From a virus (taxonomy: Duplodnaviria; Heunggongvirae; Uroviricota; Caudoviricetes): a stretch of 64,000 bases of DNA. Below, piece by piece: positions 1-64,000 of the stretch. The position numbers were made by a program, and so were the translations under genes. Location: positions 314,380 to 378,379 of the IMG/VR virus record IMGVR_UViG_2974588491_000001; one strand, written 5' to 3'. How positions within the stretch are numbered: position 1 is the stretch's first letter; the number at the start of each line of letters is the position of its first letter. A model generated the notes under the pieces. The model did no database searches. It was given only the letters and a program-made list of their open reading frames with translations, and had not been told where the DNA came from.

Positions 1-3
1 ACG

Positions 4-522
4 ATGACTTTTGAAATGACAGTAGAACAAATTCCGGTATCAATTGGTAGCTCATCCTTAGTTGGGGTTTCATCTGAATTTCCACGTGGTCATGGTAACT
101 ATATTAGTACTTTCAAACGTAGTAATGTAGCTACGACATATGAAATAGTAAATCTATCATATGAAGATTTGGTAGATGCCATTCATAAAGGTATCATCGA
201 CACTAACACAATGGAAGCTGAAGTTTATCACATTTCAGAAACCATGAAAGTTGCTTTTGTTATCGATAAACGTTTTCCTCCAATCTGCTTAACTCCTGAA
301 TGGTTTTATGGTAATCGTTCAAAAGTTAAAGTTGATATTGTGCGGCGGAAATATAATGTACCAGAATTGGTATGTTCGTGTGAATATGAAGATTCACGCA
401 ATGCAGCTATTATGTACAATTATTTTAGCTATAATATCCCTGATTGTATTGATATGAATGGTAAATGTATCGAATGTGGAACTTCCTATCGTTTAGTAAG
501 GAAAAAGAATTATGAAGCCTGA
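4..522 (+). CDS. hypothetical protein (possibly 5'-truncated by window edge)
   Basis: 172-aa ORF in the dominant coding orientation; Cys-rich C-terminus. Confidence 0.5.
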   Translation: MTFEMTVEQIPVSIGSSSLVGVSSEFPRGHGNYISTFKRSNVATTYEIVNLSYEDLVDAIHKGIIDTNTMEAEVYHISETMKVAFVIDKRFPPICLTPEWFYGNRSKVKVDIVRRKYNVPELVCSCEYEDSRNAAIMYNYFSYNIPDCIDMNGKCIECGTSYRLVRKKNYEA

Positions 523-640
523 ACAATGGATAATTGATGATATGCGAGCGATGCGAGCTATCAAAGAACGCACATATGAACAACAAGCGTACCTTGATTT
601 GCTTCAATGGTACTGCTCAGTACTGAACGGGAAAGCATAA
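512..640 (+). CDS. small hypothetical protein (42 aa)
   Basis: ATGA/TAATG overlaps with neighbours; AAGGA RBS. Confidence 0.3.
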   Translation: MKPEQWIIDDMRAMRAIKERTYEQQAYLDLLQWYCSVLNGKA

Positions 641-954
641 TGAGTACTAATATCGTTTTACTTATCGTTTCGGGTATGCTGGTATTTGCTGCACTTCGTG
701 TGTACTTCGGTCATAAGAAGATCGTCAATGAACTGTACGCCCGACTTGTTGAAGATTCAGCAACTGCTGGTACAAAGAAAAGTCCATACACTATTCGCCG
801 CCAACATAGTTCTTATTCTGGACGTGATTACTATTACATCTATGAAGGTGATAATGTAGTTCAGACAAAGAACTTCTACACTGCAAAAGAAGCCCAAGTA
901 TCTATGAACGAATTAGAACAATTGGGTGGATACCAGAAGACGAAGGTGGTATAA
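640..954 (+). CDS. membrane-anchored small protein, 'KSPY' paralog 1
   Basis: N-terminal TM helix; shares the motif SPY...G.W.G(Y/F)C.TK.GE..Y...LEGY with the next three genes. Confidence 0.6.
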   Translation: MSTNIVLLIVSGMLVFAALRVYFGHKKIVNELYARLVEDSATAGTKKSPYTIRRQHSSYSGRDYYYIYEGDNVVQTKNFYTAKEAQVSMNELEQLGGYQKTKVV

Positions 955-1292
955 TGACAGACATTCAAATATTAATGTTTTGTACTATAGTGGTTAGTAT
1001 CTGTGCTTGTGTAATTCATAACAGTACTAAAACAATTGCTGCACGTTTACATTGTCGTGCAATGGGTATTGAGTATGAAGCACCAAAATCTCTACCACAT
1101 AGCCCCTATGGTGTAATTCACACTAATGCTAATGATGGTTCATGGGGATTTTGTGTTACAAAGAATGGAGAAATTTATCGTTCAAGTAAATATGCTTCTG
1201 CTCCAGTGTATAGCAACATTAAAAGTGCTATCACTGTAATGAACACATATGAAAAACTCGAAGGGTACAAAATAACTGTACTGGAGGATTAA
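954..1292 (+). CDS. membrane-anchored small protein, 'KSPY' paralog 2
   Basis: tandem paralog; TAATG-coupled start. Confidence 0.65.
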   Translation: MTDIQILMFCTIVVSICACVIHNSTKTIAARLHCRAMGIEYEAPKSLPHSPYGVIHTNANDGSWGFCVTKNGEIYRSSKYASAPVYSNIKSAITVMNTYEKLEGYKITVLED

Positions 1293-1609
1293 TGACAAGT
1301 ACTTTAATTATTTGCTGTACAATAGCTTTTTGTACTATTTGTTTGATGATTTGTAATGTACGAAAAGTAACAGCTAAGGTATATGCACAAGTTGCAACAT
1401 ACGATGCTTTACCAAAAAGCCCGTACAGTTTAATCCGAACAAAAAGTAGTTCAGGTGGTATTGGTTATAGCATTACAAAAAATGGTGAAATAATCTATAT
1501 TCCTAGTACTGATGATAAACAGTATGAAGTGTTTGGTAGTTTATCTAATGCTATTTTTCATATTAATACCCTAGAAAAAATTGAAGGTTATCGTTTAACT
1601 CAAGTTTAA
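1292..1609 (+). CDS. membrane-anchored small protein, 'KSPY' paralog 3
   Basis: tandem paralog; TAATG-coupled start. Confidence 0.65.
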   Translation: MTSTLIICCTIAFCTICLMICNVRKVTAKVYAQVATYDALPKSPYSLIRTKSSSGGIGYSITKNGEIIYIPSTDDKQYEVFGSLSNAIFHINTLEKIEGYRLTQV

Positions 1610-1618
1610 GGTATCATC

Positions 1619-1918
1619 ATGCAAATTATTGCTAGTATTGTGATCGCTGTGATTGTTATTTGTGTTATGGTGTACATGAACAAACGTACTGCTGCTAAAT
1701 TGTATGCAGATTTAGTACTGGATATTGATAAACCTGCAAGCCCATATGGTGTATCTCGTGAAATCTCTGAAGGTGGTTCATGGGGTTACTGTATCACTAA
1801 AGATGGTGAAGTAATGTATAGTGGTTCTAAAGCTAAGGTTTTTGATTCAGTTAATGCTGCTGTACGTGAAATTAATAAACTGGAAGCAGTACAAGGATTT
1901 AGGAAAACTCGTGTCTAA
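1619..1918 (+). CDS. membrane-anchored small protein, 'KSPY' paralog 4
   Basis: tandem paralog. Confidence 0.65.
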   Translation: MQIIASIVIAVIVICVMVYMNKRTAAKLYADLVLDIDKPASPYGVSREISEGGSWGYCITKDGEVMYSGSKAKVFDSVNAAVREINKLEAVQGFRKTRV

Positions 1919-2114
1919 ATTTAAATTTGGAAAATGCCCTCAGTGTGGCTGTACTGGTATTCATGCTTGCATGGGTAAGCCTTTGAAAAAAGGGGTTGAC
2001 ATGTCAGAGCATTCAATGTATAGTACTTTGGAGGAAGCAATTGACCACATAAGAAAGTCAGAAGCTAAACGAAAAGGGGAACGTAAAAATGGCCGAAATG
2101 GTAGTAGTCGTTGA
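1911..2114 (+). CDS. small Cys-rich protein (CPQCGC motif), GTG start
   Basis: AGGA RBS then GTG in frame with ORF 1821..2114. Confidence 0.4.
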   Translation: MSKFKFGKCPQCGCTGIHACMGKPLKKGVDMSEHSMYSTLEEAIDHIRKSEAKRKGERKNGRNGSSR

Positions 2115-2292
2115 GCACTATGAAACACGGTACGGCTATGAAGAAAAACGTATCTTCAAAGCGTTTACCAACATTGCTTCATTTGAAGATTATTGTATCA
2201 AAAACGGCATCCAAATTTTAAAAGGTGCTTTCGGCACTACTTATTATGACGATGATTATAGTTACATTGTAAATCACGTGGAGTGTTTATAA
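2089..2292 (+). CDS. hypothetical protein
   Basis: ORF overlapping the upstream gene. Confidence 0.45.
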   Translation: MAEMVVVVEHYETRYGYEEKRIFKAFTNIASFEDYCIKNGIQILKGAFGTTYYDDDYSYIVNHVECL

Positions 2293-2327
2293 TGAAAGAT
2301 GAATTTCCTGACTACTAAGAGAAAACA

Positions 2328-7107: not shown

Positions 7108-7647
7108 ATGAAAATAACAGAACAATATAGAAGTGTTGGTGTACAAGAGTACTATCAAAATGAAGAAACACAACGCACATATGAAAACCCACACGCTGAA
7201 TTCGTAACCAAAAGCTTCCTGACAGCCTTTCATGAGTACTTTACCGAAGATGCTACAGTACTTGATCTATGCTCCGGTAATGGCATTATAAGCTCTGTAC
7301 TGAAGTCCTGTGGAGTACAGAATATAGAGGGTGCAGACAAATATATGTATGAACGGTACACAGAAGAAACTGGTTTCGTTTGTCATCCATATTCGTTTGA
7401 AGATATAGCAGATTTCAATGTGCAATTCGAGAAGTATTATGATGTTATAGTATGTAGTTATGCATTTGATATTGTACCTGATTCATACAGGAATAAACTT
7501 CTGTACGCATTAAGTACTTATGCTGATGCATTGATCCTGATTAGGCCGAACTCACATATTCTAGAATCCGATATGTGGGAATTAAATTTTCGTACAAAAG
7601 TACATAAAAGCACTACCACTGTATACAAGAAAAAAAGGCACTCATAA
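7108..7647 (+). CDS. class I SAM-dependent methyltransferase-like protein
   Basis: motif I VLDLCSGNG; motif II-like DVIVCSYAF. Confidence 0.55.
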   Translation: MKITEQYRSVGVQEYYQNEETQRTYENPHAEFVTKSFLTAFHEYFTEDATVLDLCSGNGIISSVLKSCGVQNIEGADKYMYERYTEETGFVCHPYSFEDIADFNVQFEKYYDVIVCSYAFDIVPDSYRNKLLYALSTYADALILIRPNSHILESDMWELNFRTKVHKSTTTVYKKKRHS

Positions 7648-49486: not shown

Positions 49487-49493
49487 TTAACTA

Positions 49494-49518: not shown

Positions 49519-49532
49519 AGTGAGATCCGCCT

Positions 49533-49787: not shown

Positions 49788-49791
49788 TACA

Positions 49792-49950
49792 ATGATTCAT
49801 GATGTGGTTATTACTCTGACAGTACAATCTGATAATGAAGTACTGACTAACGACGAAATTATAAAGGCGATGGAAGAAAAACTATCCCTGATGAAAGCCG
49901 AACCGCAAATGGTTAAAGAGCTTGCGGAATCCGCAGAAGTGTTTGATTAA
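49792..49950 (+). CDS. small acidic protein (52 aa)
   Basis: AAGGAATG RBS then ATG in frame with ORF 49765..49950. Confidence 0.4.
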   Translation: MIHDVVITLTVQSDNEVLTNDEIIKAMEEKLSLMKAEPQMVKELAESAEVFD

Positions 49951-49957
49951 TTAAAAA

Positions 49958-49991
49958 AGGGGTTGACATATGTTAGCCCCTTCTGTATACT
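49958..49991 (+). promoter_or_regulatory. PeSL cassette
   Basis: GGGGTTGACATATGTTAGCCCC followed by TATACT at 17 bp. Confidence 0.6.
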
Positions 49992-50002
49992 GTATTCATT
50001 GA

Positions 50003-50031
50003 AATAAATTAGCCCACAGGGTGCGGAGATG
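50003..50031 (+). repeat. IR-element half copy
   Basis: AGCCCACAGGGTGCGGAG. Confidence 0.5.
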
Positions 50032-50239
50032 TATCTATTAAAAAAGTACTGTATACTTAACCAGTACCTATCAAATATAAATTCAAACGAAAAAAGTACT
50101 TGCAATGGATGATAAAAGGAGTATAATTGTTTACATGGAAGGGCAAGAGGTGAAAGGTAATGAGTCGCAGTACTGAAATAGTTCTGTTTATCTTTGTACT
50201 AGTAGCACTATCTATTAATTTTAATTGAGAGGATTCAAA

Positions 50240-50473
50240 ATGTCTTTATATGATGTAACTGTAAACAGTACTGGTATTGGTCGTTCTGGTACTACTAAGA
50301 TGCTGGCTGTTGCTTTCTTTCCTCATATGAATGAAGCAAGACAAGGTATCAATGAGTGGGTATCAGAGAACTTTGTTGCTCCGGTAACTGTGAGTGTTGA
50401 ATTAAAATCTCACTCAAATATTATCTATCCATCAGAAGTCCAGGGATATGAGCGTATTGTAATTATTGAATAA
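50240..50473 (+). CDS. small hypothetical protein
   Basis: GAGAGGA RBS then ATG in frame with ORF 50225..50473. Confidence 0.5.
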   Translation: MSLYDVTVNSTGIGRSGTTKMLAVAFFPHMNEARQGINEWVSENFVAPVTVSVELKSHSNIIYPSEVQGYERIVIIE

Positions 50474-50488
50474 TTCATTAAAAGTACT

Positions 50489-50517
50489 TTGACAAAATGG
50501 TTAGAGTACTTTATAAT
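50489..50517 (+). promoter_or_regulatory. early promoter cassette (TTGACA-17-TATAAT)
   Basis: AAAAGTACTTTGACAAAATGGTTAGAGTACTTTATAAT. Confidence 0.6.
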
Positions 50518-50544
50518 GTAGTTATTGAGTGGGGAGGAAACAAA

Positions 50545-50655
50545 ATGCAATTTGTTTTCGGTGCAATTAGTGGTGTACTGATTTATCTGAATTGGGATGT
50601 TATCAGTCCCTGGATTGAATCAGTACTGAAATTTACATTAACCTTTTTTAATTGA
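50545..50655 (+). CDS. tiny hydrophobic peptide (36 aa)
   Basis: GGGGAGGA RBS. Confidence 0.35.
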   Translation: MQFVFGAISGVLIYLNWDVISPWIESVLKFTLTFFN

Positions 50656-50666
50656 GAGAAACAAAA

Positions 50667-50870
50667 ATGGCACAGAAAGATCGTCGTTATGCTATCGCTG
50701 CTGAGTTCACTGGTCACGCTTCTGGTAAGAAACGTTTTGTACTGCGTTTTGAAGGTACTCGCGTATCCGATCATGGTTCCCGTTATGAAGCGGAACAGGA
50801 GATCGCGAAGTACAAGAAAGCGGGTACTATCCCTAACGTGAATGGTTCACGTTTGCTGGTGGAGGCGTAA
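50667..50870 (+). CDS. small basic protein
   Basis: GAGAGAAA RBS then ATG in frame with ORF 50652..50870. Confidence 0.5.
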   Translation: MAQKDRRYAIAAEFTGHASGKKRFVLRFEGTRVSDHGSRYEAEQEIAKYKKAGTIPNVNGSRLLVEA

Positions 50871-51046
50871 TGCGGGAGTTTGCATTGTATGACAAGGTAC
50901 ACATGGAAAGGGAATATCCGTTAAGTACTAAGAAAGTACTTGATACTGTACCCGATATTTCTGATCATGAAGTTGAACGTATTATCAACATGAATGTATC
51001 AGAAAGTATTGAGATTGATAATACTATTATCATTCGTACACTGTAA
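50870..51046 (+). CDS. small protein (58 aa)
   Basis: TAATG coupling. Confidence 0.4.
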   Translation: MREFALYDKVHMEREYPLSTKKVLDTVPDISDHEVERIINMNVSESIEIDNTIIIRTL

Positions 51047-51065
51047 AAAAACATTATCAAAAGTA

Positions 51066-51095
51066 CTTGCTAATAGAATGCGAGTACTTTATAAT
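51066..51095 (+). promoter_or_regulatory. early promoter cassette (TTGCTA-18-TATAAT), copy 1 of an exact ~50-bp duplicate
   Basis: ATTATCAAAAGTACTTGCTAATAGAATGCGAGTACTTTATAATGTA. Confidence 0.55.
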
Positions 51096-51124
51096 GTACT
51101 TATATTAAGCGAGAGAATAAAGAA

Positions 51125-51328
51125 ATGAAAAGACTTCAAATTGACGTATCGGAACAAGCATTCAATCAATTGAAAGAATTGAAGGGTAAATGTGAAAGTG
51201 CTAGTTACGCAGATGTTACCCAAAAAGCATATAAAGTACTCGACTTCTTTATGAATGCAAAAGCTGATGGCAAATCTATAATTGTCGTAGATAAAGATGG
51301 TAAAGAAACGATAGTAGAAATGCTTTAA
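51125..51328 (+). CDS. small hypothetical protein
   Basis: 67-aa ORF after TTAAGCGAGA. Confidence 0.5.
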   Translation: MKRLQIDVSEQAFNQLKELKGKCESASYADVTQKAYKVLDFFMNAKADGKSIIVVDKDGKETIVEML

Positions 51329-51378
51329 CTATATTATCAAAAGTACTTGCTAATAGAATGCGAGTACTTTATAATGTA
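51329..51378 (+). repeat. exact duplicate of promoter cassette 51048-51097
   Basis: identical ~50-bp string 280 bp apart. Confidence 0.6.
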
Positions 51379-51405
51379 GTTATTGAATCAAACAGAGATA
51401 AAGAA

Positions 51406-51708
51406 ATGAAAACTCCACATCATAAAGCGTATGAATATCATTATTACTTTGTTGGTAAAGATGGTATTCCTTATGTAGCAAAAAACTATCTCGCTGTAGT
51501 TCCTGGCGTTAATGTTGAAATGCTGATTAAACGCTGGAACCTTGCTGCTGGTCATGGTCGGAAGTATGTTCTTAAAGGTGAGGTGGATCTTAAAACAGCT
51601 TTATATACTCGCGGCAGTACTGGAACTATGATTGCGAATGATTGGAAGTTACTCGATCATATGCAATTCCACGGTATTGAATTTGAAGTAAAACAAATCG
51701 CAGCATAA
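51406..51708 (+). CDS. hypothetical protein
   Basis: ATG in frame with ORF 51358..51708. Confidence 0.5.
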   Translation: MKTPHHKAYEYHYYFVGKDGIPYVAKNYLAVVPGVNVEMLIKRWNLAAGHGRKYVLKGEVDLKTALYTRGSTGTMIANDWKLLDHMQFHGIEFEVKQIAA

Positions 51709-51770
51709 TTACAAAGTACTGGTGAAATATCCAGTACTGTTTTTATGTACAGTACTATATCCATTGAATA

Positions 51771-51790
51771 CATCTCCGCACCCTGTGGGC
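51771..51790 (+). repeat. IR-element right-arm copy (CTCCGCACCCTGTGGG)
   Basis: isolated arm. Confidence 0.45.
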
Positions 51791-51934
51791 TGTAGCATTG
51801 TTCTTGCTATGTGATAATAATATACTAGTACTTATATAATGTCAAGGAAATAATTATACTTTCAAACGTGAATTTGTCCTTGCATTTATTAATTAGTACT
51901 GTATAATACTTGTATTGAATCGGGAGAACGAACA

Positions 51935-52186
51935 ATGAACAAAGATTTAGTACTGTATTCGATTGCAATGATACTGTCAAGCATAGTAGTATACGTTGGT
52001 ATCGATGAAGCAAGATCCGGTATCTTCTGGCAAGCTACGGTCATTGCAGAAAACATCAACGATACATGGTTTAACTTTATAACTCATGGTATCAATTCGT
52101 TGTTCTTTATGGTGGTATGGATCGGCGTTGGTTCAATGATTGCATTTGTTTTTCATTTAGTGTTTGACAACGAGCAAGAGTCCTGA
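51935..52186 (+). CDS. small membrane protein
   Basis: two TM helices. Confidence 0.45.
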   Translation: MNKDLVLYSIAMILSSIVVYVGIDEARSGIFWQATVIAENINDTWFNFITHGINSLFFMVVWIGVGSMIAFVFHLVFDNEQES

Positions 52187-52217
52187 TATAGTACACGAAT
52201 TGAAACGGAGAGATACT

Positions 52218-52376
52218 ATGAGAGTTCAACCGATTGCACCAATTTTTAAGTTAGCCAGCAGTACTGTTAAAGATGAATATCCGAAACATATTGTTGACAA
52301 TCCTTGTAGTACTGTAGTATCTTTGGGTCAGAAAACTTTTGCACAGTTATATGACAAACAATGTAAAATCAAATGA
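52218..52376 (+). CDS. small protein (52 aa)
   Basis: GGAGAGA RBS. Confidence 0.4.
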   Translation: MRVQPIAPIFKLASSTVKDEYPKHIVDNPCSTVVSLGQKTFAQLYDKQCKIK

Positions 52377-52384
52377 GGTTTTAA

Positions 52385-53260
52385 ATGGGTAAGTATATTT
52401 CGTGGGGTATCTTTGGGGTTATCGCCCTTGCAGTAATGGCAGCGGTATTTGGTGCATCATTCACAGTAAAAGAAACTGAGCGTACTGTACTGTTGCGTAA
52501 TGGTAAGTTCGTGGAAGTAGCACAGCCGGGTTTTCACCTTAAAATGCCTTTCATTACTGACACAAAAGCAATTCAGGTAACAGGCGAATCCCGCCGTTGG
52601 GAAAAGCTACAAGCATATTCACGCGATCAACAACCTGCGGATATGGCTGTATCTGTATCTTTCAACGTACAGCCTGGACAAGTCGAACAGTTATATAAAA
52701 AGTATAACAGCATTGACGCGATGATTTCACGTGTAATTGATCGCCAGGTGCCGCAAGCACTGGAAAACGTTTTCGGCAAGTACACAGCAATTTCAGCAGT
52801 ACAAGATCGTACTAAGCTGGTGGCTGATGTTAATAAAGCCGTTAAAGAAGCAATGGCTGATGAACCGGTAACAGTATCGAGCGTACAGATCGAAGGTCTA
52901 TCCTTCTCTGATGCATACGATAAAGCAGTTGAAGATCGTATGACTGCACAGGTTGCGGTTGAACAATCCCAGCAAGATCTGGAAAAAGCTAAGATCACTT
53001 CACAGATTGCACTGACTAACGCTAAAGCCGAAGCTGATGCAAACTTTGCGAAGTTAGACGCCGAAGCGAAAGGTATCAAAGCAAAAGGTGACGCCGAAGC
53101 ATCTGCGATTAAAGCGAAAGGTGAAGCCCTTAAACAAGCTGGTGATACTTTAGTAGCATATATTTACGCTACTACGTGGAAAGGTAATTCACCTACTACC
53201 GTAGTGCCTAATACCTCCATCACTGGCTTGAGTCTGCCAGGGCAGCAAAAGCCGCAATAA
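52385..53260 (+). CDS. SPFH/band-7 (HflK/HflC/prohibitin-like) membrane protein
   Basis: N-terminal TM anchor, SPFH core (ERTVLLRNGKF...QVPQALENVFG), C-terminal Ala/Lys coiled coil; GC-richer codon usage than neighbours. Confidence 0.75.
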   Translation: MGKYISWGIFGVIALAVMAAVFGASFTVKETERTVLLRNGKFVEVAQPGFHLKMPFITDTKAIQVTGESRRWEKLQAYSRDQQPADMAVSVSFNVQPGQVEQLYKKYNSIDAMISRVIDRQVPQALENVFGKYTAISAVQDRTKLVADVNKAVKEAMADEPVTVSSVQIEGLSFSDAYDKAVEDRMTAQVAVEQSQQDLEKAKITSQIALTNAKAEADANFAKLDAEAKGIKAKGDAEASAIKAKGEALKQAGDTLVAYIYATTWKGNSPTTVVPNTSITGLSLPGQQKPQ

Positions 53261-53275
53261 GTACTGAATACTACA

Positions 53276-53302
53276 AAAGCCTAGCAATGTCTAGGCTTTT
53301 TT
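53276..53302 (+). terminator. rho-independent terminator
   Basis: aagcctagcaatgtctaggctt followed by a T-run. Confidence 0.65.
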
Positions 53303-53399
53303 ATATTTCGAAAAATATACTTTCAAACGTGAAAAGTACTTGCACAAAATGATCTGATGTAGTATTATCTTTATATCGACAACGAACAAGGAGAAACAA

Positions 53400-53597
53400 A
53401 TGGAACAACATTATGTACATATCCCTAGCCCTCTGTTGTTTTCGAGAGAAGCTAGATTGTCTCGCATTAAGTACTTGAGCAAGGCAAAGGCAAGTACTGA
53501 GAAAGAAGATCGTGAATGGAACTTGATTATGGCGAAGATGATGAAGCGTCATGAAAAGCAATGGATGGAAGTTTACAAAGAAGACTTTCTGAAGTAA
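53400..53597 (+). CDS. small basic protein
   Basis: 65-aa ORF with AAGGAGAA RBS. Confidence 0.45.
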   Translation: MEQHYVHIPSPLLFSREARLSRIKYLSKAKASTEKEDREWNLIMAKMMKRHEKQWMEVYKEDFLK

Positions 53598-53614
53598 ACA
53601 TTATCAAAAGTACT

Positions 53615-53643
53615 TTGACAAAATGGTTAGAGTACTTTATAAT
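53615..53643 (+). promoter_or_regulatory. early promoter cassette (TTGACA-17-TATAAT)
   Basis: conserved cassette. Confidence 0.6.
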
Positions 53644-53675
53644 GATTACATCAACCACTAAGAAGGAATGTACAA

Positions 53676-53870
53676 ATGACTACTGAAGAATGGCGTAAAC
53701 TTTCTCTGCAAACATCAATAACTGAGAAAGAAAAACAGCAGAAGACTATGTTTAATAGACGTTTGAAGTATCCCCCAAGAAGTGAATTACGTCGCTTGTG
53801 CGTTCAATATTCATGGTGGTTTCGTCACGAATTAAATGATTTTCGTGTACGTTTGGCAAAAATTCAGTAA
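53676..53870 (+). CDS. small basic protein
   Basis: 64-aa ORF. Confidence 0.45.
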   Translation: MTTEEWRKLSLQTSITEKEKQQKTMFNRRLKYPPRSELRRLCVQYSWWFRHELNDFRVRLAKIQ

Positions 53871-53943
53871 ACATTATCAAAAGTACTTTACTTAATTGAT
53901 AGAGTACTTTATAATGATTACATCAAATAATGAGGAAATTGAA

Positions 53944-54267
53944 ATGAGAAATTTATTATTAGTACTGGCGGCATTTGGTACAGGTTTAATGTGTGGGAAG
54001 TTTATCTACAAAGAGAATATCTCGTTTGACTTGTTTAGTGAAACAAAGTATACTTGTTCATACAAAGCTTACAGTGAAGAATTACTTCCAATATCAGACA
54101 GTAATACTTATACTGAAAAAGAGTTGAAGAAGTATCAAGAAGGTGATAGTATTATGGGAATGAAGATTGTTAGATTGTTTCCATTCCCTGATGCGTACAG
54201 TATGTTTGTACAATCAAATACGAATCCTGAACACAGTATTTTAATTAAGTGCGAGAAGAAAAAATGA
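53944..54267 (+). CDS. secreted or membrane-anchored small protein
   Basis: signal-like N-terminus MRNLLLVLAAFGTGLMCG. Confidence 0.5.
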   Translation: MRNLLLVLAAFGTGLMCGKFIYKENISFDLFSETKYTCSYKAYSEELLPISDSNTYTEKELKKYQEGDSIMGMKIVRLFPFPDAYSMFVQSNTNPEHSILIKCEKKK

Positions 54268-54653
54268 AAACTTACGAACAACTGAAAGGTGTAGCTGGTA
54301 AGATTGTTGACAACATTCAAAAGAACAGAATCAATGAAGCAGTATTCACTACTGTAACAGGCCGCAAAACTAAAGCTATAGAGTTGGGTACTTTGGTCGG
54401 TATGGTATCTGCGGCATGTTGTGAACGCAAGATTGATACTGCGATCTTGGAATTGTACTTGCGTAATGTTCATGGGTTTGAATATCGCGGTGTCCGTAAC
54501 ATGAGCAATGCAATGTTGGACGCATACGCAATTAAAGTACTTTCACATTGTGGTGATAAAGTTTTACGGTCTGGACACTTCAAAAAGATTGAAGAACTCG
54601 CCGCACAAAATACACCAGTAGATGAAGCAGCAAAAATCATCTTAGCAATGTAA
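54264..54653 (+). CDS. hypothetical protein
   Basis: ATGA coupling. Confidence 0.55.
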   Translation: MKTYEQLKGVAGKIVDNIQKNRINEAVFTTVTGRKTKAIELGTLVGMVSAACCERKIDTAILELYLRNVHGFEYRGVRNMSNAMLDAYAIKVLSHCGDKVLRSGHFKKIEELAAQNTPVDEAAKIILAM

Positions 54654-54670
54654 TTATTATCAAAAGTACT

Positions 54671-54699
54671 TTGACAAATAAGTTAGAGTACTTTATAAT
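54671..54699 (+). promoter_or_regulatory. early promoter cassette (TTGACA-17-TATAAT)
   Basis: conserved cassette. Confidence 0.6.
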
Positions 54700-54724
54700 G
54701 ATTATATTCAACGAGGGGAATATA

Positions 54725-54916
54725 ATGAGCAAACAATTTACTCATGCACCAAAAGCTGGTGGTGGTTATGAAATCATGTTCGGTAATAATGTGATCGATA
54801 GTGCTGATACTTTAAAAGAAGCACGTAATAAAATTGCAAAGTTCAAACGTGAAATGAAATTTTCTAATCTGGTGAATAAGTACTTTAATTATTCAGACAA
54901 CTTAAAGAAAAAATAG
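54725..54916 (+). CDS. small basic protein
   Basis: GAGGGGAA RBS. Confidence 0.45.
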   Translation: MSKQFTHAPKAGGGYEIMFGNNVIDSADTLKEARNKIAKFKREMKFSNLVNKYFNYSDNLKKK

Positions 54917-54978
54917 CTTGCATCACTCGTAATTATGAAGTATAATCTTTACATCAACCACTAAGAAGGAACAACAAA

Positions 54979-55365
54979 ATGTTTACTACTCATTACTTTG
55001 AAACAAGAACCCTGGCTCGTAACAACGTTGCTGTACTGAACGGTAAATTCAAAGACTTCGGTACTGATGCACCGAAAGGCCAGCGTTGGGCTGTATTGGT
55101 TGAAGCACAAGAAGCACAACCAGTGCCGGAAGTCAAAGAAGAAATTAAAATCGAACAAGCAACAACTGATAATTCTTCTGTCAGTACTTCCATCAAAGAT
55201 CTGCATGTTGCCGCCATTGCAAATGCTATGCCAAACGTATCCTTTACGCCAGGTATGAAACGCCGCGACGATCTGAAAACGCCTAATGGTAAGCCTGTAC
55301 GCCTCATGGTACGTCGTTCGATGGTGGCTGTACGGTTGGCTCAACATATGGCTAACTACGCTTAA
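54979..55365 (+). CDS. hypothetical protein (host-like codon usage)
   Basis: 128-aa ORF with AAGGAACAA RBS. Confidence 0.55.
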   Translation: MFTTHYFETRTLARNNVAVLNGKFKDFGTDAPKGQRWAVLVEAQEAQPVPEVKEEIKIEQATTDNSSVSTSIKDLHVAAIANAMPNVSFTPGMKRRDDLKTPNGKPVRLMVRRSMVAVRLAQHMANYA

Positions 55366-55484
55366 AATTCGATTGGGGGCTTATATGCCCCCATAATTAA
55401 GTAAGGATAATACCATATGCCAATTACTCCAGTTGTTTTGTTAATTGTGGTGTGTATAATAATTTTTATATTGTTGAGGCCGCG

Positions 55485-55727
55485 ATGAAAAAGATGGTAA
55501 TTGATAATACACAATTACGCATACACTTTAAAGCAAGTACTAAAGTACTGGACAAAGCATTAAGGGTTGTGCGAGAATATACAAAAGGTGAAGTTAGACC
55601 GAGGCGATTAGGTTGTGGATTGTTTGAAGTACTGGACGTTTCGCATAATGAGCGAATCGTAATTCAAAACAGTAAACTTAACTTAATGACTCATGAACAA
55701 TATAATAAGTTCGTTGAACGCCGTTGA
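55485..55727 (+). CDS. small hypothetical protein
   Basis: GAGG RBS then ATG in frame with ORF 55452..55727. Confidence 0.45.
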   Translation: MKKMVIDNTQLRIHFKASTKVLDKALRVVREYTKGEVRPRRLGCGLFEVLDVSHNERIVIQNSKLNLMTHEQYNKFVERR

Positions 55728-55739
55728 CATAATCCCCTA

Positions 55740-55783
55740 AATATGATTATAATAAATTTATAGTCATTAGGGGATTTTTTATT
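55740..55783 (+). terminator. intrinsic terminator (long-loop hairpin aatcccctaa...ttaggggatt followed by a T-run)
   Basis: 10-bp stem. Confidence 0.5.
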
Positions 55784-56302
55784 ATGCCAGGAACATTCCG
55801 CAGTAAAAATAGTGCTACCCTAGCAGGTCACTCTGATAAATGGAGTAACTCTAATCGTAGTGCGTCAAGTCATGATGCTGGTCAAGGTAGTAGAGGAAGC
55901 CGAAACCAGGGAACAGGTATTCAAGGGAAACTAAACACTATGCCATCACAAGGCGTAGACACTTCCAAAATGAAACCAGAAGAAAAGTTAAAGTACTTTA
56001 AATCGTTGGGGTTAATGCCTGGTGCAGAACCTACACCAGAACCAGAAGTACAACCTGAACCAAAACCAGAACGTAACAAAGTACAAGCATTAACGCAAGA
56101 CCTACAGAAAGTATTTGCTAACACTCCAAACTATCTGCATAGTATTGTACAGCAGCTTAAAGAAGTGCCACCAGCACAATTTAAAAAAGCTGTATTCGCG
56201 GCGTATCGTGCAATGCAAGAAGCTACAGCACAAGCAAACGTAGATCCTAAAGCAGTACTTAAACATATAGAAGATGCAATTAACCAAAGTATCTACGATT
56301 AA
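55784..56302 (+). CDS. Pro/Glu-rich low-complexity protein
   Basis: 172-aa ORF. Confidence 0.5.
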   Translation: MPGTFRSKNSATLAGHSDKWSNSNRSASSHDAGQGSRGSRNQGTGIQGKLNTMPSQGVDTSKMKPEEKLKYFKSLGLMPGAEPTPEPEVQPEPKPERNKVQALTQDLQKVFANTPNYLHSIVQQLKEVPPAQFKKAVFAAYRAMQEATAQANVDPKAVLKHIEDAINQSIYD

Positions 56303-56365
56303 TATTTGACAGTACTCAATTCATCTGATAGTATTAAGTTATTCCAAACAACAAGGTACTATCAA

Positions 56366-56704
56366 ATGAAAAGAATTTTATTAGTCGGACTTCTGTTTGC
56401 AAGTACTGTTAACGCTCAAATGTTAACTTGCTCTAACAGTACTCTTTCTTTTCGTAATAACGATGGAAGTTATAGCGAAAAGGTAGCAACAAAACTTTCA
56501 AACATCAACGTAGAAGTACTGGAACAAGCTATAACGTTCTATGCTGGTGGAATTGATAAACTGGAATTTTGGAAAGATTACAATGAGTATCGTAATGATA
56601 CTGGTAAGGTAGTTCGCTCAGGTGATACTTTTTCATTGTATACCACTATTCCAACTGATACAAATAAAATGCAGCCTGTTAAAGTTGATTATGTCTGCAA
56701 ATAA
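56366..56704 (+). CDS. secreted small protein (signal peptide MKRILLVGLLFASTVNA)
   Basis: ATG in frame with ORF 56306..56704. Confidence 0.5.
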   Translation: MKRILLVGLLFASTVNAQMLTCSNSTLSFRNNDGSYSEKVATKLSNINVEVLEQAITFYAGGIDKLEFWKDYNEYRNDTGKVVRSGDTFSLYTTIPTDTNKMQPVKVDYVCK

Positions 56705-56714
56705 ATTCAAATAA

Positions 56715-56749
56715 AAGGTTGACTTCGGTCGGCCTTTTTTGTTATACTT
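56715..56749 (+). promoter_or_regulatory. PeSL cassette
   Basis: AGGTTGACTTCGGTCGGCCTTTTTTGTTATACT. Confidence 0.6.
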
Positions 56750-56762
56750 ACTTTATTGGCAG

Positions 56763-56792
56763 ATAAGCCGTTAGCCCATTGGGTGCGGAGTT
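56763..56792 (+). repeat. IR-element half copy (GCCGTTAGCCCATTGGGTGCGGAG)
   Basis: left arm only. Confidence 0.5.
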
Positions 56793-56946
56793 ATGTCATT
56801 TTTAAGTACTTTCTATTTTGAAAATATTATACAAAAACTTATAAAAAGTCCTTGCAGATAATTCTGATTCTGCTATTATAACCACATCAAGACGGGGCAA
56901 CGTCTTAGAAAACAAAATTCAAATATTAAGTGAGAGGCAGTACAAA

Positions 56947-57294
56947 ATGACTAAATCAATCAAAGTTAAAGCTACTAAATCAGTTCAGGCAAACAACGTA
57001 GAAAACATTAAAAGACTGCCTATTGGTACTGTAGTAGTTCATAACTATGGTGAGTTTACCCACGGTGTAATTGTAGGTCATGCAGAACATGCTTACCAGG
57101 TTTATTTTAGTGCTGATATGTCACCGATGCTTCCAAAGTATCAGGCTAATACCGATGAAGCAATTAAAGCACGTATGCGTACTATTACCCTGGGCAAAGG
57201 ATTCTTTGTAAGTCGCTTCAAAACAATTGAAGCAGTTCGTGAAGCACAACGCAAATATAAAAATCGTGGTCTGGATCTCGAATCAGCAGCGTAA
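56947..57294 (+). CDS. hypothetical protein
   Basis: TTAAGTGAGAGG pre-start. Confidence 0.55.
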   Translation: MTKSIKVKATKSVQANNVENIKRLPIGTVVVHNYGEFTHGVIVGHAEHAYQVYFSADMSPMLPKYQANTDEAIKARMRTITLGKGFFVSRFKTIEAVREAQRKYKNRGLDLESAA

Positions 57295-57306
57295 TTGAAT
57301 TTAAAA

Positions 57307-57340
57307 AGGAGTTGACAACAGTTGGCTCCTTTGCTATACT
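57307..57340 (+). promoter_or_regulatory. PeSL cassette variant (TTGACA-17-TATACT)
   Basis: AGGAGTTGACAACAGTTGGCTCCT hairpin. Confidence 0.55.
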
Positions 57341-57384
57341 ACCCATAAGAACTTAATTGAAGTACTTTTTAAAGGCATATCATC

Positions 57385-57603
57385 ATGAGAAACATTTTAG
57401 AAGAACTCCTTAAAGAACCAACCGAAGAAGAAATGCAAGCCAGTGCAGTACTGCGTGATCTCTGTATTCAAAATGAGCTTGAGTTTCCTGAACAATTGTT
57501 CATGTTGCAGTATTTTGCAGGTATTGAACCAGGTCTGATCGTTTCAAAGGTGAACGCATTAAACACGCCTTTGATTGAAAATGCAATACACGTAATGCAC
57601 TAA
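57385..57603 (+). CDS. small acidic protein
   Basis: 72-aa ORF. Confidence 0.45.
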   Translation: MRNILEELLKEPTEEEMQASAVLRDLCIQNELEFPEQLFMLQYFAGIEPGLIVSKVNALNTPLIENAIHVMH

Positions 57604-57611
57604 TTAATTCT

Positions 57612-57649
57612 ACAAAGTACTTGACTCCGGTTGAGTACTTTAGTATTAT
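57612..57649 (+). promoter_or_regulatory. PeSL variant with AGTACT in the stem (TTGACT-17-TATTAT)
   Basis: AGTACTTGACTCCGGTTGAGTACT. Confidence 0.55.
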
Positions 57650-57811
57650 ATATTCATTGGCAGATAAGCCGTTACCTACAAGGTGCATAATTGTATCTGT
57701 ATAAAAGAAAATATAAATTCAAATAAAAAACTTGCATTTATCCGTCAGTACTGTATAATGATTTACATGGATTAGGGAATGGCCTTAATCATTTTAAGTG
57801 AGAATACTATC

Positions 57812-58381
57812 ATGAAATTTGAAGAACTGAACGAGCAACAAAAAGCTAGAGCACTTGACAAACATCGTTATATTAACGTTGATTATGACGAATGGCATGA
57901 TTTTGTCAAAGACGATCATCATTCGAAACTGGAAGCCGTTGGTTTTGAAGGCGTAGAGTCGCGTTACAGTGGTTTTTGTTCCCAGGGCGACGGGGCAAGT
58001 TTTCTTGCAAGTAACGTTGACATTGAGAAGTTTCTGCGTTCACAAAAACGTTGGACGCATTATCGTGCCTTGCATGAGTTTATTCGTATCAATGAGATCA
58101 CGGCGAAAGTAGTTGCGTTACCTTCTCATTACGTACACTACAATACAACTCAAGCGGAGTTATCAGGCGATTGGTATATTGATTTTACTCCTAAGCAGGA
58201 AGCACTATATAAAGAACTCGAAGAAGAGATCGACGCATATATCACACAAGCGGGTAAAGATTATTACGCTGATCTTGAAACTGCGTACTACGATCTTACC
58301 AGTGACGAACAAGTAGAACAAACAATCATCGCGAATGATTTAGATTTTGAAGAAACAGATCATTCAGTAACTTATCTTTGA
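57812..58381 (+). CDS. hypothetical protein
   Basis: ATG after TTAAGTGAGA, in frame with ORF 57779..58381. Confidence 0.55.
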   Translation: MKFEELNEQQKARALDKHRYINVDYDEWHDFVKDDHHSKLEAVGFEGVESRYSGFCSQGDGASFLASNVDIEKFLRSQKRWTHYRALHEFIRINEITAKVVALPSHYVHYNTTQAELSGDWYIDFTPKQEALYKELEEEIDAYITQAGKDYYADLETAYYDLTSDEQVEQTIIANDLDFEETDHSVTYL

Positions 58382-58585
58382 CAAGTACTAAAACTTTATG
58401 ATATAGTACTCGCATAGAAAAAAACACGAGCAAACAACTATGCGAGTACTTAAATCACATAACGATATAATTTTCGCTACTTATGGCGATTGTTATATGG
58501 TTAAAAAAGGGAGGATGAAAATAGTTTGTAATAATCCCGTAATTGCTTTATACTATTACTGTAAACTTTTAAGTGAGAATATAAA

Positions 58586-58918
58586 ATGAGAAAACCTAAC
58601 GTAGAAATTCTTTGTGATTCGCATCATGGTGTACATATCCCGTCCATCATGATTCAACGTCTGGTAGATGCAGGTTGGCGAAACATTCCCGCCGATGCCG
58701 TAGAAGTACTTTCTTCCGTAGACAATGAAGGTTATTGGGATTGTTGGGAAGAAGTACTTAACAATGCAGAATGGCATGATGCAAGTACTGGTCAAGTATT
58801 CAAGTTGCACCAGGACGGCGATCTGTTTGCTTATTGCAAGGATAGTATGACTCCGCAAGAGTATCATCATATGTTTGGTGAATATCCAGACTGGTACAAT
58901 CAGGAAGAAGAAGCATAA
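58586..58918 (+). CDS. hypothetical protein
   Basis: TTTTAAGTGAGAATATAAAATG. Confidence 0.5.
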   Translation: MRKPNVEILCDSHHGVHIPSIMIQRLVDAGWRNIPADAVEVLSSVDNEGYWDCWEEVLNNAEWHDASTGQVFKLHQDGDLFAYCKDSMTPQEYHHMFGEYPDWYNQEEEA

Positions 58919-58930
58919 TTAAATTTAAAA

Positions 58931-58964
58931 AGTACTTGACTCCGGTCAGGTACTTTGCTATTAT
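58931..58964 (+). promoter_or_regulatory. PeSL variant (AGTACTTGACTCCGGTCAGGTACT, TATTAT at 17 bp)
   Basis: hairpin plus hexamers. Confidence 0.55.
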
Positions 58965-58975
58965 GTATACATAGC

Positions 58976-59006
58976 AAGAACAATGCTTTAGCCCATAGGG
59001 TGCAGG
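58976..59006 (+). repeat. IR-element half copy (GCTTTAGCCCATAGGGTGCAGGAG)
   Basis: degenerate left arm. Confidence 0.45.
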
Positions 59007-59127
59007 AGTGTAGTTATAGTATAAGGATGTAGTACTGAAAGAAATATAAAGTTAAATGAAAAATTCCCTTGCTTTCTTTCTTTCGTGTGGTATACTTTAG
59101 TTATTGAAACAGAGCGGAGTTTGAAAA

Positions 59128-59370
59128 ATGTCTAAATCAGGAATCGAATTTAAAGTGCGGAAATGGTCTGAGCATGGTGCAAGACGCCCATTCGATGTAG
59201 TAGCACTGGATCACGACAACAACAAACAGCACTACCAGCCAGGCTGCACTTTCAGTACTGAGGATGGGGCAGAGCGTCACGCTCAAGTACTGGCACAGCG
59301 TATTAAAGACAATGCAAACACTATTAAGTTTATTCGTGATTGCTGGCCTGTAGACGGCGGGATCGAATAA
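59128..59370 (+). CDS. small hypothetical protein
   Basis: 80-aa ORF with GGAG RBS. Confidence 0.5.
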   Translation: MSKSGIEFKVRKWSEHGARRPFDVVALDHDNNKQHYQPGCTFSTEDGAERHAQVLAQRIKDNANTIKFIRDCWPVDGGIE

Positions 59371-59449
59371 AAATTCAAATGAAAAAGTACTGGACAATCT
59401 AAGTTTAGTACTTTATAATTTAAATACAAAACGAATTGAGGAACTGATT

Positions 59450-62305: not shown

Positions 62306-62364
62306 TCGTTTTGAAGCAAAAAAATTCCTTGACCTTCCCTGCGATATTTGAGAGAATACCTACA

Positions 62365-62465
62365 AGCCAGAACAAAGGCGTAGCCCACCGGGTGCATAGG
62401 CACGTCCAAAATTCAGTACTCAAATTTTAGATAGATCTCCGCACCCTGTGGGTCAGACCGTTACA
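62365..62465 (+). repeat. inverted-repeat element copy C (degenerate left arm, perfect right arm)
   Basis: CCCACCGGGTGCATAG ... CTCCGCACCCTGTGGG. Confidence 0.55.
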
Positions 62466-62656
62466 CCGGTTTATGTACTTATTATACATCAACCACGAAT
62501 CAATGCAATACCCTAGAGAAAATAAAATTATAAATTCAAACGAAAAAATACTTGTATTTGTTTGCTGGTGGAGTTAATATCTATTCATCGAAACAAACAA
62601 CGGCAAGACGAAACAGCCGATAACGTCAAGCCCAACTACGCCTAGAGGAATTCATC

Positions 62657-62926
62657 ATGAGAGTAACAACACTGATTAAAAAACTGTTTGGTGAAGATTC
62701 AATTGCTGATTACATGGAAACGCTTGATTCAGAGGACAAAGAATCAGTACTGGAGTTTTATACTATCCAGCGTGAAGAAGATGCAAGTGAACCAGATTAC
62801 TTTGTAAAACTTTTCACCGATGGTCTGTACCAGGTTAAAGATCTTAAAGGTAATACTATCGTTCACACTTATGATGTGAAAGAATTAAAAAAACAATTAA
62901 AAGTACTTGCACAATCTTCTAACTAA
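62657..62926 (+). CDS. hypothetical protein
   Basis: GAGG RBS. Confidence 0.5.
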   Translation: MRVTTLIKKLFGEDSIADYMETLDSEDKESVLEFYTIQREEDASEPDYFVKLFTDGLYQVKDLKGNTIVHTYDVKELKKQLKVLAQSSN

Positions 62927-62995
62927 TAGTATCTTATCTGTGTCGGACGGGAACAGGGTTACATAGTGTAACCCGCTCGCTCCAGGAGATTCATC

Positions 62996-63553
62996 ATGAC
63001 CATCATCGCCCTTCTTTCTTCTGTTGCTGCTGTTGCTAACCTAGCTGATGTTGATTCCGTTATTATCATGGACGGTGAAAACAACTACTATGATGATTCC
63101 GATTTTTACTATGTTGGTGTTAACATCAAAACAGGTGAATACTTCAAACACTATCATAGTACTACACGTGCTTACGGTTTCAGAGATCTCCCAAAAAGTG
63201 TTTGCATTAATGCCCTGGCTGACAATGTACAGGAAGACGTTAGAGCTATGTATAAACAGGCTTGCATCAATGAAGCACGTCGCCTGATGGATACTGATTA
63301 CGATTATATTATCAGTACTGGTGATACTGTTAAAGTAACAAACACTCGTGCCAGAAAGCACAAAGGAGAAACTTTTGTGGTTACTCATACCAGTACGTAT
63401 GAAGATAACTATGGTCGTACACAGACTGTTTACCTTCACGGCGGTGATGATGTTAAGACTAGCCGCACTAACTGCACTCGTATTGCAGTAGGCGATGCAG
63501 TCATTAACAAAGTAGCAGAACGCTTAGCGGTAGGGCTGGCGATTAAATTCTAA
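62996..63553 (+). CDS. hypothetical protein
   Basis: 185-aa ORF with GGAG RBS. Confidence 0.55.
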   Translation: MTIIALLSSVAAVANLADVDSVIIMDGENNYYDDSDFYYVGVNIKTGEYFKHYHSTTRAYGFRDLPKSVCINALADNVQEDVRAMYKQACINEARRLMDTDYDYIISTGDTVKVTNTRARKHKGETFVVTHTSTYEDNYGRTQTVYLHGGDDVKTSRTNCTRIAVGDAVINKVAERLAVGLAIKF

Positions 63554-63574
63554 AAGTACTAAGTACAATAGTAC

Positions 63575-63604
63575 TTGACAAATACGAAAGGCCGCTGTCA
63601 TAAT
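63575..63604 (+). promoter_or_regulatory. promoter with hairpin in the spacer (TTGACA-18-CATAAT)
   Basis: ggccgctgtcataatgacggcggc stem-loop. Confidence 0.45.
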
Positions 63605-63634
63605 GACGGCGGCTTACTTTATGGGATTAACTTT

Positions 63635-63835
63635 ATGTTTAATGTGATTGGATGTTTAGGCGTCAGTGTTGGACAGGCTGACAGTATTGATATGGCTACG
63701 CTGTTAGTACTGCGACAGATAGCAATAGGAGCTAAGAAGGTACGCACCATGCGTAACGCTCTCTCACGCCTTACCACAGGGCAGGAATACCACGTGGAAT
63801 ACGGTGGCTCAGGCTGTACCATACGCCGCTTATAA
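63635..63835 (+). CDS. small protein (GC-richer codon usage)
   Basis: ATG in frame with ORF 63575..63835. Confidence 0.35.
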   Translation: MFNVIGCLGVSVGQADSIDMATLLVLRQIAIGAKKVRTMRNALSRLTTGQEYHVEYGGSGCTIRRL

Positions 63836-64000
63836 GTGCTTACAGAAAGGATTTAAGTACTTTTATCTAAGGTCAAAAAATATTTGATTCAAAATAAAAG
63901 TACTTGACTTTTAAAATGCATAGGTAATCCCTTCATATTTCTATATGTAACATTGTTGCACTATGAAATAAATTTTTGCTTACTAAAGGCCAGTAACGCT

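Follow-up and report, generated by a model that had tools for sequence, protein, structure and literature searches.

Highly iterated palindromes, i.e., HIP1 and its alternates, are known from the genomes of cyanobacteria (Elhai 2015, PMC4390886; Xu, Lawrence and Durand 2018, PMC5861425), and HIP1 appears to be the closest precedent for the word described here, the palindromic hexamer AGTACT. Phages are expected to lose palindromes, which are restriction targets, yet in a clade of jumbo phages one palindrome is the commonest word. We analysed a stretch of 64,000 bases (the window), positions 314,380–378,379 of the IMG/VR record IMGVR_UViG_2974588491_000001, which matches Pectobacterium phage vB_PcaM_CBB (NC_041878.1; hereafter CBB) at 99.9–100% and whose initial 32 kb were identical to the fetched record. 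CBB is a Mimasvirus, a RaK2-like jumbo myovirus, and the window is the final 64 kb of its genome, including the right copy of a 22.5-kb terminal repeat (41,545–64,000). Gene calls were the 129 RefSeq coding sequences (CDS), each of which translated cleanly, and whole-genome counts refer to the 355,923-bp unique CBB genome, i.e., the rest of the record together with the window.

The window holds 276 copies of AGTACT, which makes it the commonest of all 4,096 hexamers. Base composition predicts 21.5 copies, a first-order Markov model 19.4 and a second-order model 47, and the observed count lies ~55 standard deviations over the composition expectation. Higher-order Markov models come nearer to it, at 116 and 227, because the enriched sub-words AGTAC and GTACT belong to the same signal. 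The runner-up among over-represented palindromic hexamers reaches only 2.3x in the window and only 2.1x genome-wide. The whole CBB genome has 1,092 copies where 120 would be expected (9.1x), and no other hexamer is as common there either. All 10-kb bins contribute, with 19–66 copies each and about one copy per 330 bp genome-wide, the minimum falling in the late structural genes and the maximum in the terminal repeat. An earlier note on this DNA, made by eye, had proposed a tenfold excess, with a few hundred copies present where ~20 were expected. Its figures were borne out by the 276 against 21.5, a count far outside the expected range under the first- and second-order models; the excess is real and exceeds what was stated there.

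The excess is found in genes and between them, as the same note had claimed for promoters and coding DNA alike. Annotated CDS hold 179 window sites (3.5 per kb), 96 are wholly non-coding (7.8 per kb) and one straddles a boundary. The CDS sites fall into all three codon phases (82, 25 and 72), which represents enrichments of 6.3x, 9x and 9.7x over codon-order shuffles. Shuffling synonymous codons within genes, with protein and codon usage kept, gave 47.4±5.7 coding sites with a maximum of 67 in 300 shuffles, and shuffling codon order gave 23.1±4.5, against the 179 observed. Both codon choice among synonyms and amino-acid choice lean toward AGTACT: Ser-Thr pairs are 1.72x over-represented and are written AGT-ACT in 82 of 129 cases (64% vs ~16% by codon usage), while Val-Leu pairs are written GTA-CTN in 93 of 143. 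These two coding routes had been recognised before, as had a third, Gln-Tyr, which is real but minor, since xAG-TAC-T supplies 25 sites in which Lys, Glu and Gln are in about equal use.

A single repeated element, which could have explained the enrichment away, does not do so, as only 42 of the 276 sites have flanks in common with another site, at a threshold of 60% identity or more over 40 nt. They belong to the early promoter cassettes at 46.5–59.4 kb, and the other 85% of window sites have unique flanks. The late structural genes, which lie on the opposite strand, carry 2.9 copies per kb. Spacing is close to Poisson (coefficient of variation 0.92), and pair distances show neither helical nor longer periodicity, their sole peak being the 21–22 bp of the promoter pairs. 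Poisson spacing together with flat pair distances argues for selection on density, not on position.

The selected unit is 8 bp, (C/A)AGTACT(G/T), rather than 6 bp, as seen in the counts for the CBB genome:
CAGTACTG: 130 observed vs 3.8 expected (34x), the most over-represented 8-mer
AAGTACTT: 166 observed vs 12.3 expected (13.5x)
TAGTACTA: 57 observed vs 12.3 expected (4.6x)
GAGTACTC: 4 observed vs 3.8 expected (1.1x, i.e., chance)

The pattern in RaK2 and 121Q is as in CBB, with CAGTACTG present 13 times vs 0.2 expected and 16 times vs 0.26, respectively; it makes up ~21% of AGTACT sites in these two phages and 12% in CBB. At ±1 the base preferences of the flanks differ from background with p ~1e-111, and at ±4, where T is preferred 5' and A 3' of the site, with p ~3e-23; the left and right preferences are near mirror images despite almost all genes lying on one strand. 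At synonymous third positions 3' of a site, G goes up from 14% to 51%. Palindromic extension past 8 bp, as a longer palindrome or a hairpin, was at chance level. One-nucleotide variants that differ at an outer position (NGTACT/AGTACN) stand at 2.1–2.5x and those that differ at an inner position at 0.5–1.5x, and none of the one-step transition neighbours was depleted (AGTATT/AATACT 1.12x; AGCACT/AGTGCT 1.35x). The two-fold symmetry of the flanks argues for duplex DNA that is read by a symmetric protein, and the best reading of this anatomy would be a DNA-level protein recognition site, not an RNA or translational signal.

The same genome has been stripped of other palindromes. Of the 64 palindromic hexamers, no fewer than 28 are missing altogether from the 356-kb CBB genome; CTTAAG is found 0 times vs 120 expected, GATATC 6 vs 120 and the tetramer GCGC 0 vs 360. 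This purge is common to RaK2, 121Q, XbC2 and Mimasvirus relatives. It is lacking from Vibrio phage 2.275.O (MG592671; counts cover 111 kb of its 349-kb genome), where GCGC occurs 164 times vs 137 expected and only two palindromes are absent. Some AT-rich palindromes are not avoided in CBB (GAATTC 1.6x, AACGTT 1.7x). Given that 28 palindromes and GCGC are absent, the lineage is under very strong anti-palindrome pressure, and AGTACT opposes this trend. One hyperabundant palindrome in a palindrome-purging clade points to a strong opposing benefit, large enough to alter proteins at hundreds of positions.

The excess is a trait of a clade and not of CBB only, being common to Mimas-, Asterius- and Alcyoneusvirus. 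Seven Mimasvirus-like genomes are enriched 6.6–10x around the sigma-factor gene, with GCGC at 0, and RaK2 (7.1x), 121Q (9.1x) and XbC2 (7.1x) are enriched also. Other phages had the following AGTACT counts:
PA5oct: 1 vs 8.4 expected
XacN1: 0 vs 6.3 expected
Atu_ph07: 2 vs 8.4 expected
T4: 4 vs 16.6 expected
Vibrio phage 2.275.O: 22 vs 36.8 expected in 111 kb

The Vibrio phage is as near to CBB as RaK2 is, with a major capsid protein 81% identical, and no enrichment is seen at ~40 IMG/VR loci with a major capsid protein of 64–70% identity. CBB carries 14 sites in the 9.3 kb of its conserved portal, capsid and polymerase genes, where non-enriched relatives have 0–1 per gene, and 10 of the 13 core-gene sites that can be aligned to the Vibrio sister phage are amino-acid differences. 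From these comparisons the trait is a sharp property of the enterobacterial RaK2-like clade.

Within this clade, sites persist beyond background. In blastn alignments of the first 32 kb of CBB to its relatives, retention was as follows:
GAP32: AGTACT sites retained 53% vs control hexamers 30%
BF: AGTACT sites retained 58% vs control hexamers 22%
fHe-Yen9-04: AGTACT sites retained 45% vs control hexamers 21%

Retention in more distant metagenomic relatives was weaker, and one of these had no excess. About half of the sites turn over between relatives while density remains constant, which would fit selection on density combined with weak purifying selection on each site. The earlier note had inferred positive selection, and this is upheld by the bent coding choices, the ~2x retention relative to controls and the purge of palindromes elsewhere.

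Some further relatives show smaller signals. In a Logan contig (SRR14424468, 80.8 kb; L129), the capsid protein of which is 77% identical, AGTACT occurs 12 times vs 6.5 (1.8x), GCGC 0 times vs 22 and 24 palindromes are purged; it shares three CBB sites and has AGTACC at two others, and may represent an intermediate or decaying state of the trait. Modest, dispersed excesses of other palindromes were seen in two IMG/VR relatives with capsid proteins 64–68% identical, TGGCCA in L127 (19 vs 3.6) and AACGTT in L067 (21 vs 5.7), and either could be an alternate word of lesser strength. Tandem coding repeats account for two other candidates, GGGCCC in L084 and CACGTG in L110, which were rejected on that ground.

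Copies of AGTACT also sit at fixed positions in the early promoter cassettes and in the stems of promoter-early stem-loops (PeSL), as had been noticed before and as the geometry of these elements confirms. The cassette takes the form ATTATCAAA-AGTAC-TTGCAA/TTGACA-N9-10-G-AGTACT-(T/A)-TATAAT with a 17-nt spacer; its paired AGTACT copies are 21–22 bp apart, at about -40..-35 and -19..-14, and the final T of the first copy is also the first base of the -35 hexamer. The relevant features are:
46505–59412, + strand: ~17 near-identical early promoter/terminator cassettes, inside the terminal repeat
47033–47070, + strand: example cassette, in which AGTACT (47037–47042) overlaps the -35 hexamer TTGCAA (47042–47047) at the T
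47058–47063 and 47065–47070, + strand: second half of the example cassette, AGTACT and TATAAT, respectively, with a 17-nt spacer
57614–57641, + strand: PeSL-type hairpin AAAGTACTTGAC-TCCG-GTTGAGTACTTT, a 12-bp stem made from two promoter AGTACT copies
58929–58956, 46500–46535 and 51715–51738: similar hairpins
41085–42970, no strand: non-coding stretch of 1.9 kb across the left end of the terminal repeat (41545)

The two copies in a cassette can pair as a hairpin stem because AGTACT is self-complementary, and the T-rich tail after the hairpin at 57614–57641 overlaps the -10 region. Cassettes provide ~42 of the 276 window sites (~15%) and ~40 of the 1,092 genome sites (3–4%). In IMG/VR the exact cassette pattern was found only in 350–370 kb contigs of this clade and a few fragments. 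The non-coding region at 41085–42970 contains 17 AGTACT and 27 GTAC, several of them within CAGTACTG or TATAGTACTATA. The boundaries of the terminal repeat are not on a site, and the idea that genome ends are cut at AGTACT was rejected.

The terminal repeat carries other repeated elements. Its intergenic DNA contains, at several places, a perfect inverted repeat of 15 nt, CCCACAGGGTGCGGA ... TCCGCACCCTGTGGG (42552–42620, 45362–45430, 50013, 51775 and 62438), two of these forming a stem with a ~39-nt loop. Iteron-like direct repeats, (T)AGATGG(A/C)T(A/G)GAC, are clustered at 42229–42353, just inside the left end, and could serve as an origin or as an array of protein-binding sites. Across the genome, the E. 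coli Chi octamer GCTGGTGG is ~10x over-represented, with 16 copies on the + strand and 13 on the - strand vs 1.5 and 0.9 from composition, and 6.8 and 4.3 from a fourth-order Markov model. Seven co-oriented + strand copies lie in the terminal repeat (50855, 52816, 54755, 56543, 60161, 61482 and 62564), the orientation in which RecBCD would encounter them if it came in from the right end of the genome.

Proteins that could read or modify AGTACT were sought in the window and in the rest of the genome. Two window genes come into question:
7108–7647, + strand: S-adenosylmethionine (SAM)-methyltransferase-like gene, with a weak Methyltransf_23 match and annotated in RefSeq as a tRNA methyltransferase
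16252–16482, + strand: HTH_37 (Xre-like) DNA-binding protein, adjoining a phage sigma-70-like factor (16724–17716)

The first had been put forward as a possible partner of the word, a suggestion that found no support: it is a generic class-I SAM methyltransferase with no match to a DNA-methyltransferase family. The HTH_37 protein was rejected as the reader, having homologues only in CBB, GAP32, XbC2 and Kaldavass and none in other enriched phages. CBB has three orphan DNA methyltransferases, a Dam-like PF05869 enzyme (CBB_72), an N4-C enzyme (CBB_157) and a C5 enzyme (CBB_399). CBB_157, whose best solved relative is M.PvuII, was rejected as the cause, as close orthologues were found only in 18 Mimasvirus-like records. 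CBB_399, a small Dnmt3/HhaI-like enzyme, was rejected as well, since AGTACT contains no CpG; CpG methylation has been reported for RaK2 (PMC3622015). Neighbours of the methyltransferase genes gave no Pfam or NCBIfam match, so that no endonuclease partner was seen beside CBB_157. Among the genes tested, CBB_72 alone tracks the trait, with homologues in RaK2, K64-1, Muenster, Munch, EJP2 and XaC1; none was detectable in the 111 kb of Vibrio phage 2.275.O, including the syntenic locus, where the flanking cytidyltransferase is conserved. This correlation is suggestive only.

Host proteins fared no better. The binding sequence of SlmA is a 12-bp palindrome, GTRAGYRCTYAC, with an AGTACT core, in which G1, T2, A4 and G5 are required (PMC3020112). 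As a partner, or as a protein to be titrated, SlmA was rejected: there are 0 full sites in 356 kb, GT[GA]AGTACT and its reverse complement occur 35 times vs 69 expected, and the -2 and -3 positions show no bias. Avoidance of SlmA sites was rejected too, as SlmA tolerates A at position 3 yet A is favoured at -1. LexA boxes are at chance level (4 vs 3.8 expected). A phmmer search of all CBB open reading frames found no Phd/YefM, TrpR or SlmA-like protein, although this was a weak test.

The slot of the N4-C methyltransferase in CBB (L011:15971-16831), just upstream of a conserved RlaP-type nucleotidyltransferase, is occupied in the Vibrio phage by a GIY-YIG gene (L133:36799-37818), which suggests gene replacement at a conserved slot. 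A gene annotated as an endonuclease (18694–19668) has two matches to the DUF4379 treble-clef zinc finger, no relative was detected among solved structures, and no nuclease domain was assigned to it.

We consider it somewhat probable (about 0.55) that (C/A)AGTACT(G/T) is a positively selected duplex-DNA recognition word with a two-fold symmetric, clade-specific reader, and that it serves as a mark of phage DNA and in the gating of promoters. The reader, most likely encoded by the phage, would be either a protein that binds DNA as a dimer or an orphan DNA methyltransferase paired with a reader of its own; the absence of the trait from near, non-enriched relatives makes a clade-specific reader the simplest account. 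Selection would act mainly on site density, with the word marking phage DNA while single sites turn over. In each early cassette the same word stands twice, two helical turns apart, bracketing the -35 element, abutting the -10 element and supplying the hairpin stem, and from this geometry the reader could also gate early transcription. What the data show directly is an excess that depends neither on frame nor on repeats, an 8-bp specificity that is symmetric, conserved sites, a distribution by clade and the geometry of the promoters. We infer from these patterns that a protein reads the word, that the phage encodes this protein, and that its effect would be one of protection or self-marking, of methylation, of nucleoid organisation or of promoter control.

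Several results weigh against this interpretation. The reader protein was not found among the candidates examined. The HTH_37 protein, the only annotated sequence-specific DNA-binding protein of the window, does not track the trait, and close orthologues of CBB_157 are missing from the equally enriched Asterius and Alcyoneus groups. Characterised Dam-like PF05869 members are known to target GATC or to be non-specific, and AGTACT is not among the known specificities of the family. Outside the ~17–20 cassettes, AGTACT-N-TANNNT occurs 70 times vs 68.6 expected, i.e., with no link to a -10 element. Furthermore, a repair process that restored sites would likewise yield excess conservation, and the trait co-varies with enterobacterial hosts, so that the reader could be host-encoded.

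A bolder version, which we offer tentatively and think rather unlikely, is that RaK2-like jumbo phages tell self from non-self by the density of an 8-bp palindrome and not by DNA hypermodification. A symmetric reader encoded by the phage, possibly helped by an orphan methyltransferase, would protect the phage's own DNA or give it order during the attack on or silencing of host DNA, and it would also switch the two-site early promoters. By base composition, host DNA is expected to have ~14-fold fewer sites. If true, this would be a sequence-density principle of self and non-self that is not known to have been described in viruses.

Other explanations have to be set against the recognition word. 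We think it unlikely that the excess comes from a drive in which an orphan methyltransferase marks AGTACT or GTAC and methylation-dependent mismatch repair converts near-cognates, so that copies arise from biased repair and not from any benefit of the sites, along the lines of the HIP model of Elhai (2015). Three orphan methyltransferases are at hand in CBB, methyltransferase targets are typically strict short palindromes, the Dam-like enzyme is spread through the enriched clade but could not be detected where synteny would place it in the non-enriched Vibrio phage, and the concentration of variants at outer positions (2.1–2.5x) is as Elhai reported for HIP1 (PMC4390886). A drive of this kind is, however, hard to reconcile with Vsr-type transition neighbours that are not depleted (1.12x and 1.35x), with a genome in which no homologue of Vsr, MutH or MutS is annotated, with graded 8-bp flanks and a ±4 signal that would be unusual in methyltransferase targets, and with an N4-C enzyme that does not track the trait. 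Slightly more doubtful still is a word recognised by an Enterobacterales-specific protein that binds or processes DNA, accumulated in the manner of Chi to modulate a host activity from either direction. The enriched phages infect Klebsiella, Escherichia, Cronobacter, Pectobacterium, Erwinia, Serratia and Yersinia, whereas the similarly related Vibrio phage and phages of Pseudomonas, Xanthomonas (XacN1) and Agrobacterium are not enriched, and the ~10x enrichment of Chi provides a precedent in the same genome for an adaptive word of a host enzyme. Yet T4, which also infects E. coli and belongs to the same superfamily, has fewer copies than expected (4 vs 16.6) and XbC2 is enriched though isolated on Xanthomonas; no enterobacterial protein of AGTACT specificity could be named, SlmA is excluded (0 full sites) and LexA boxes are at chance. 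The clade-dependent share of CAGTACTG (12% in CBB, ~21% in RaK2 and 121Q) would suit a co-evolving phage reader better.

Three further accounts were considered. A signal in RNA or translation, i.e., AGUACU in transcripts or a preference for the AGU-ACU codon pair, is very improbable: a palindrome enters mRNA from either strand, nearly the whole genome is transcribed and AGT-ACT is strongly preferred, but all three phases and non-coding DNA are equally enriched, promoter copies are located 5' of transcription starts, and mirror-symmetric flanks would not be expected of a single-stranded reader when genes lie on one strand. That the early promoter and PeSL cassette accounts for the whole excess is refuted by the coding, shuffle and flank counts. 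There are ~17–20 near-identical cassettes with two copies each that make hairpin stems, but they explain only ~42 of 276 window sites and ~40 of 1,092 genome sites, leaving 179 window sites within genes with unique flanks and a density of 2.9 per kb in opposite-strand late genes. We give next to no weight to the idea, refuted by the shuffles, the palindrome counts and the Vibrio phage, that AGTACT piled up passively through composition, codon usage or the loss of other palindromes, being tolerated because ScaI-type restriction is rare in the hosts. Other AT-rich palindromes do go unavoided (GAATTC 1.6x, AACGTT 1.7x), but AGTACT is ~55 standard deviations over composition and far above every synonymous and codon-order shuffle, the next palindrome reaches just 2.1x genome-wide, and sister phages of similar composition have no excess. 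The purged palindromes of the AG..CT form are only AGCGCT and AGGCCT (37 expected each), which leaves ~970 extra sites unaccounted for.

No earlier description of the excess was found in the CBB and RaK2 papers or in the papers that literature searches on the word returned, the GAP32 genome paper lying outside that coverage. The phage would be a far easier system than HIP1, the only comparable case, which has defied explanation for three decades, in which to find a reader and a function: it offers ~1,100 sites, trait-free sister phages, and tractable E. coli and Klebsiella hosts. Digestion with ScaI, TatI or RsaI is predicted to be informative on modification. AGTACT is also a diagnostic signature of the clade in metagenomes, and would be worth keeping in recoded or engineered phages of this clade.

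Set beside known systems, AGTACT shares something with each. The Type II restriction-modification target of the ScaI type, AGT^ACT, is the identical hexamer, and is a strict short palindrome typical of a homodimeric enzyme; unlike restriction targets, which phages normally deplete, it is 9x up in CBB and has an 8-bp flank preference. AGTACT is depleted in PA5oct, XacN1, Atu_ph07 and T4, not in CBB. T4-type phages reportedly have PeSL cassettes (said to have been described by Arbiol et al. in 2010), and the CBB cassettes resemble them in that each repeat, lying between small early genes, joins an early promoter of the sigma-70 type to a stem-loop; this likeness concerns the cassettes only. What sets CBB apart from T4-type PeSL is a stem consisting of two copies of a genome-wide hyperabundant word, and cassettes hold a small minority of the copies. 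With Chi (GCTGGTGG), DNA uptake sequences (DUS) and uptake signal sequences (USS) it shares a high genome-wide density under selection, with density mattering over exact position. These words, whose density is selected for because DNA-processing machinery reads them, are asymmetric, orientation-dependent, read on one strand and have known readers, whereas AGTACT is palindromic with symmetric flanks; there is no Chi-like orientation bias, as word and flanks are two-fold symmetric and hence have no orientation. The SlmA-binding sequence GTGAGTACTCAC of E. coli nucleoid occlusion has a central AGTACT and belongs to enteric-type hosts (Tonthat et al. 2011, PMC3020112), but the G1 and T2 flanks that it requires are not enriched in CBB, and GAGTACTC is the sole 8-mer context without enrichment.

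The likeness to HIP1 goes furthest. Both are short perfect palindromes, many-fold over expectation, within genes in all frames and between them; both have sites conserved between genomes beyond background, with variants biased to the outer positions, and both occur in genomes with orphan methyltransferases, three in CBB. They differ in that HIP1 is a GC-rich octamer (GCGATCGC) and AGTACT an AT-rich word with a 6-bp core in an 8-bp context, in that AGTACT belongs to a lytic phage clade and not a cellular phylum, and in that AGTACT shows no depletion of transition neighbours and is spaced at short range much as a Poisson process would be. Finally, unlike the HIP1 case, the CBB genome has eliminated 28 other palindromes, and its one favoured palindrome is hard-wired into promoter cassettes.

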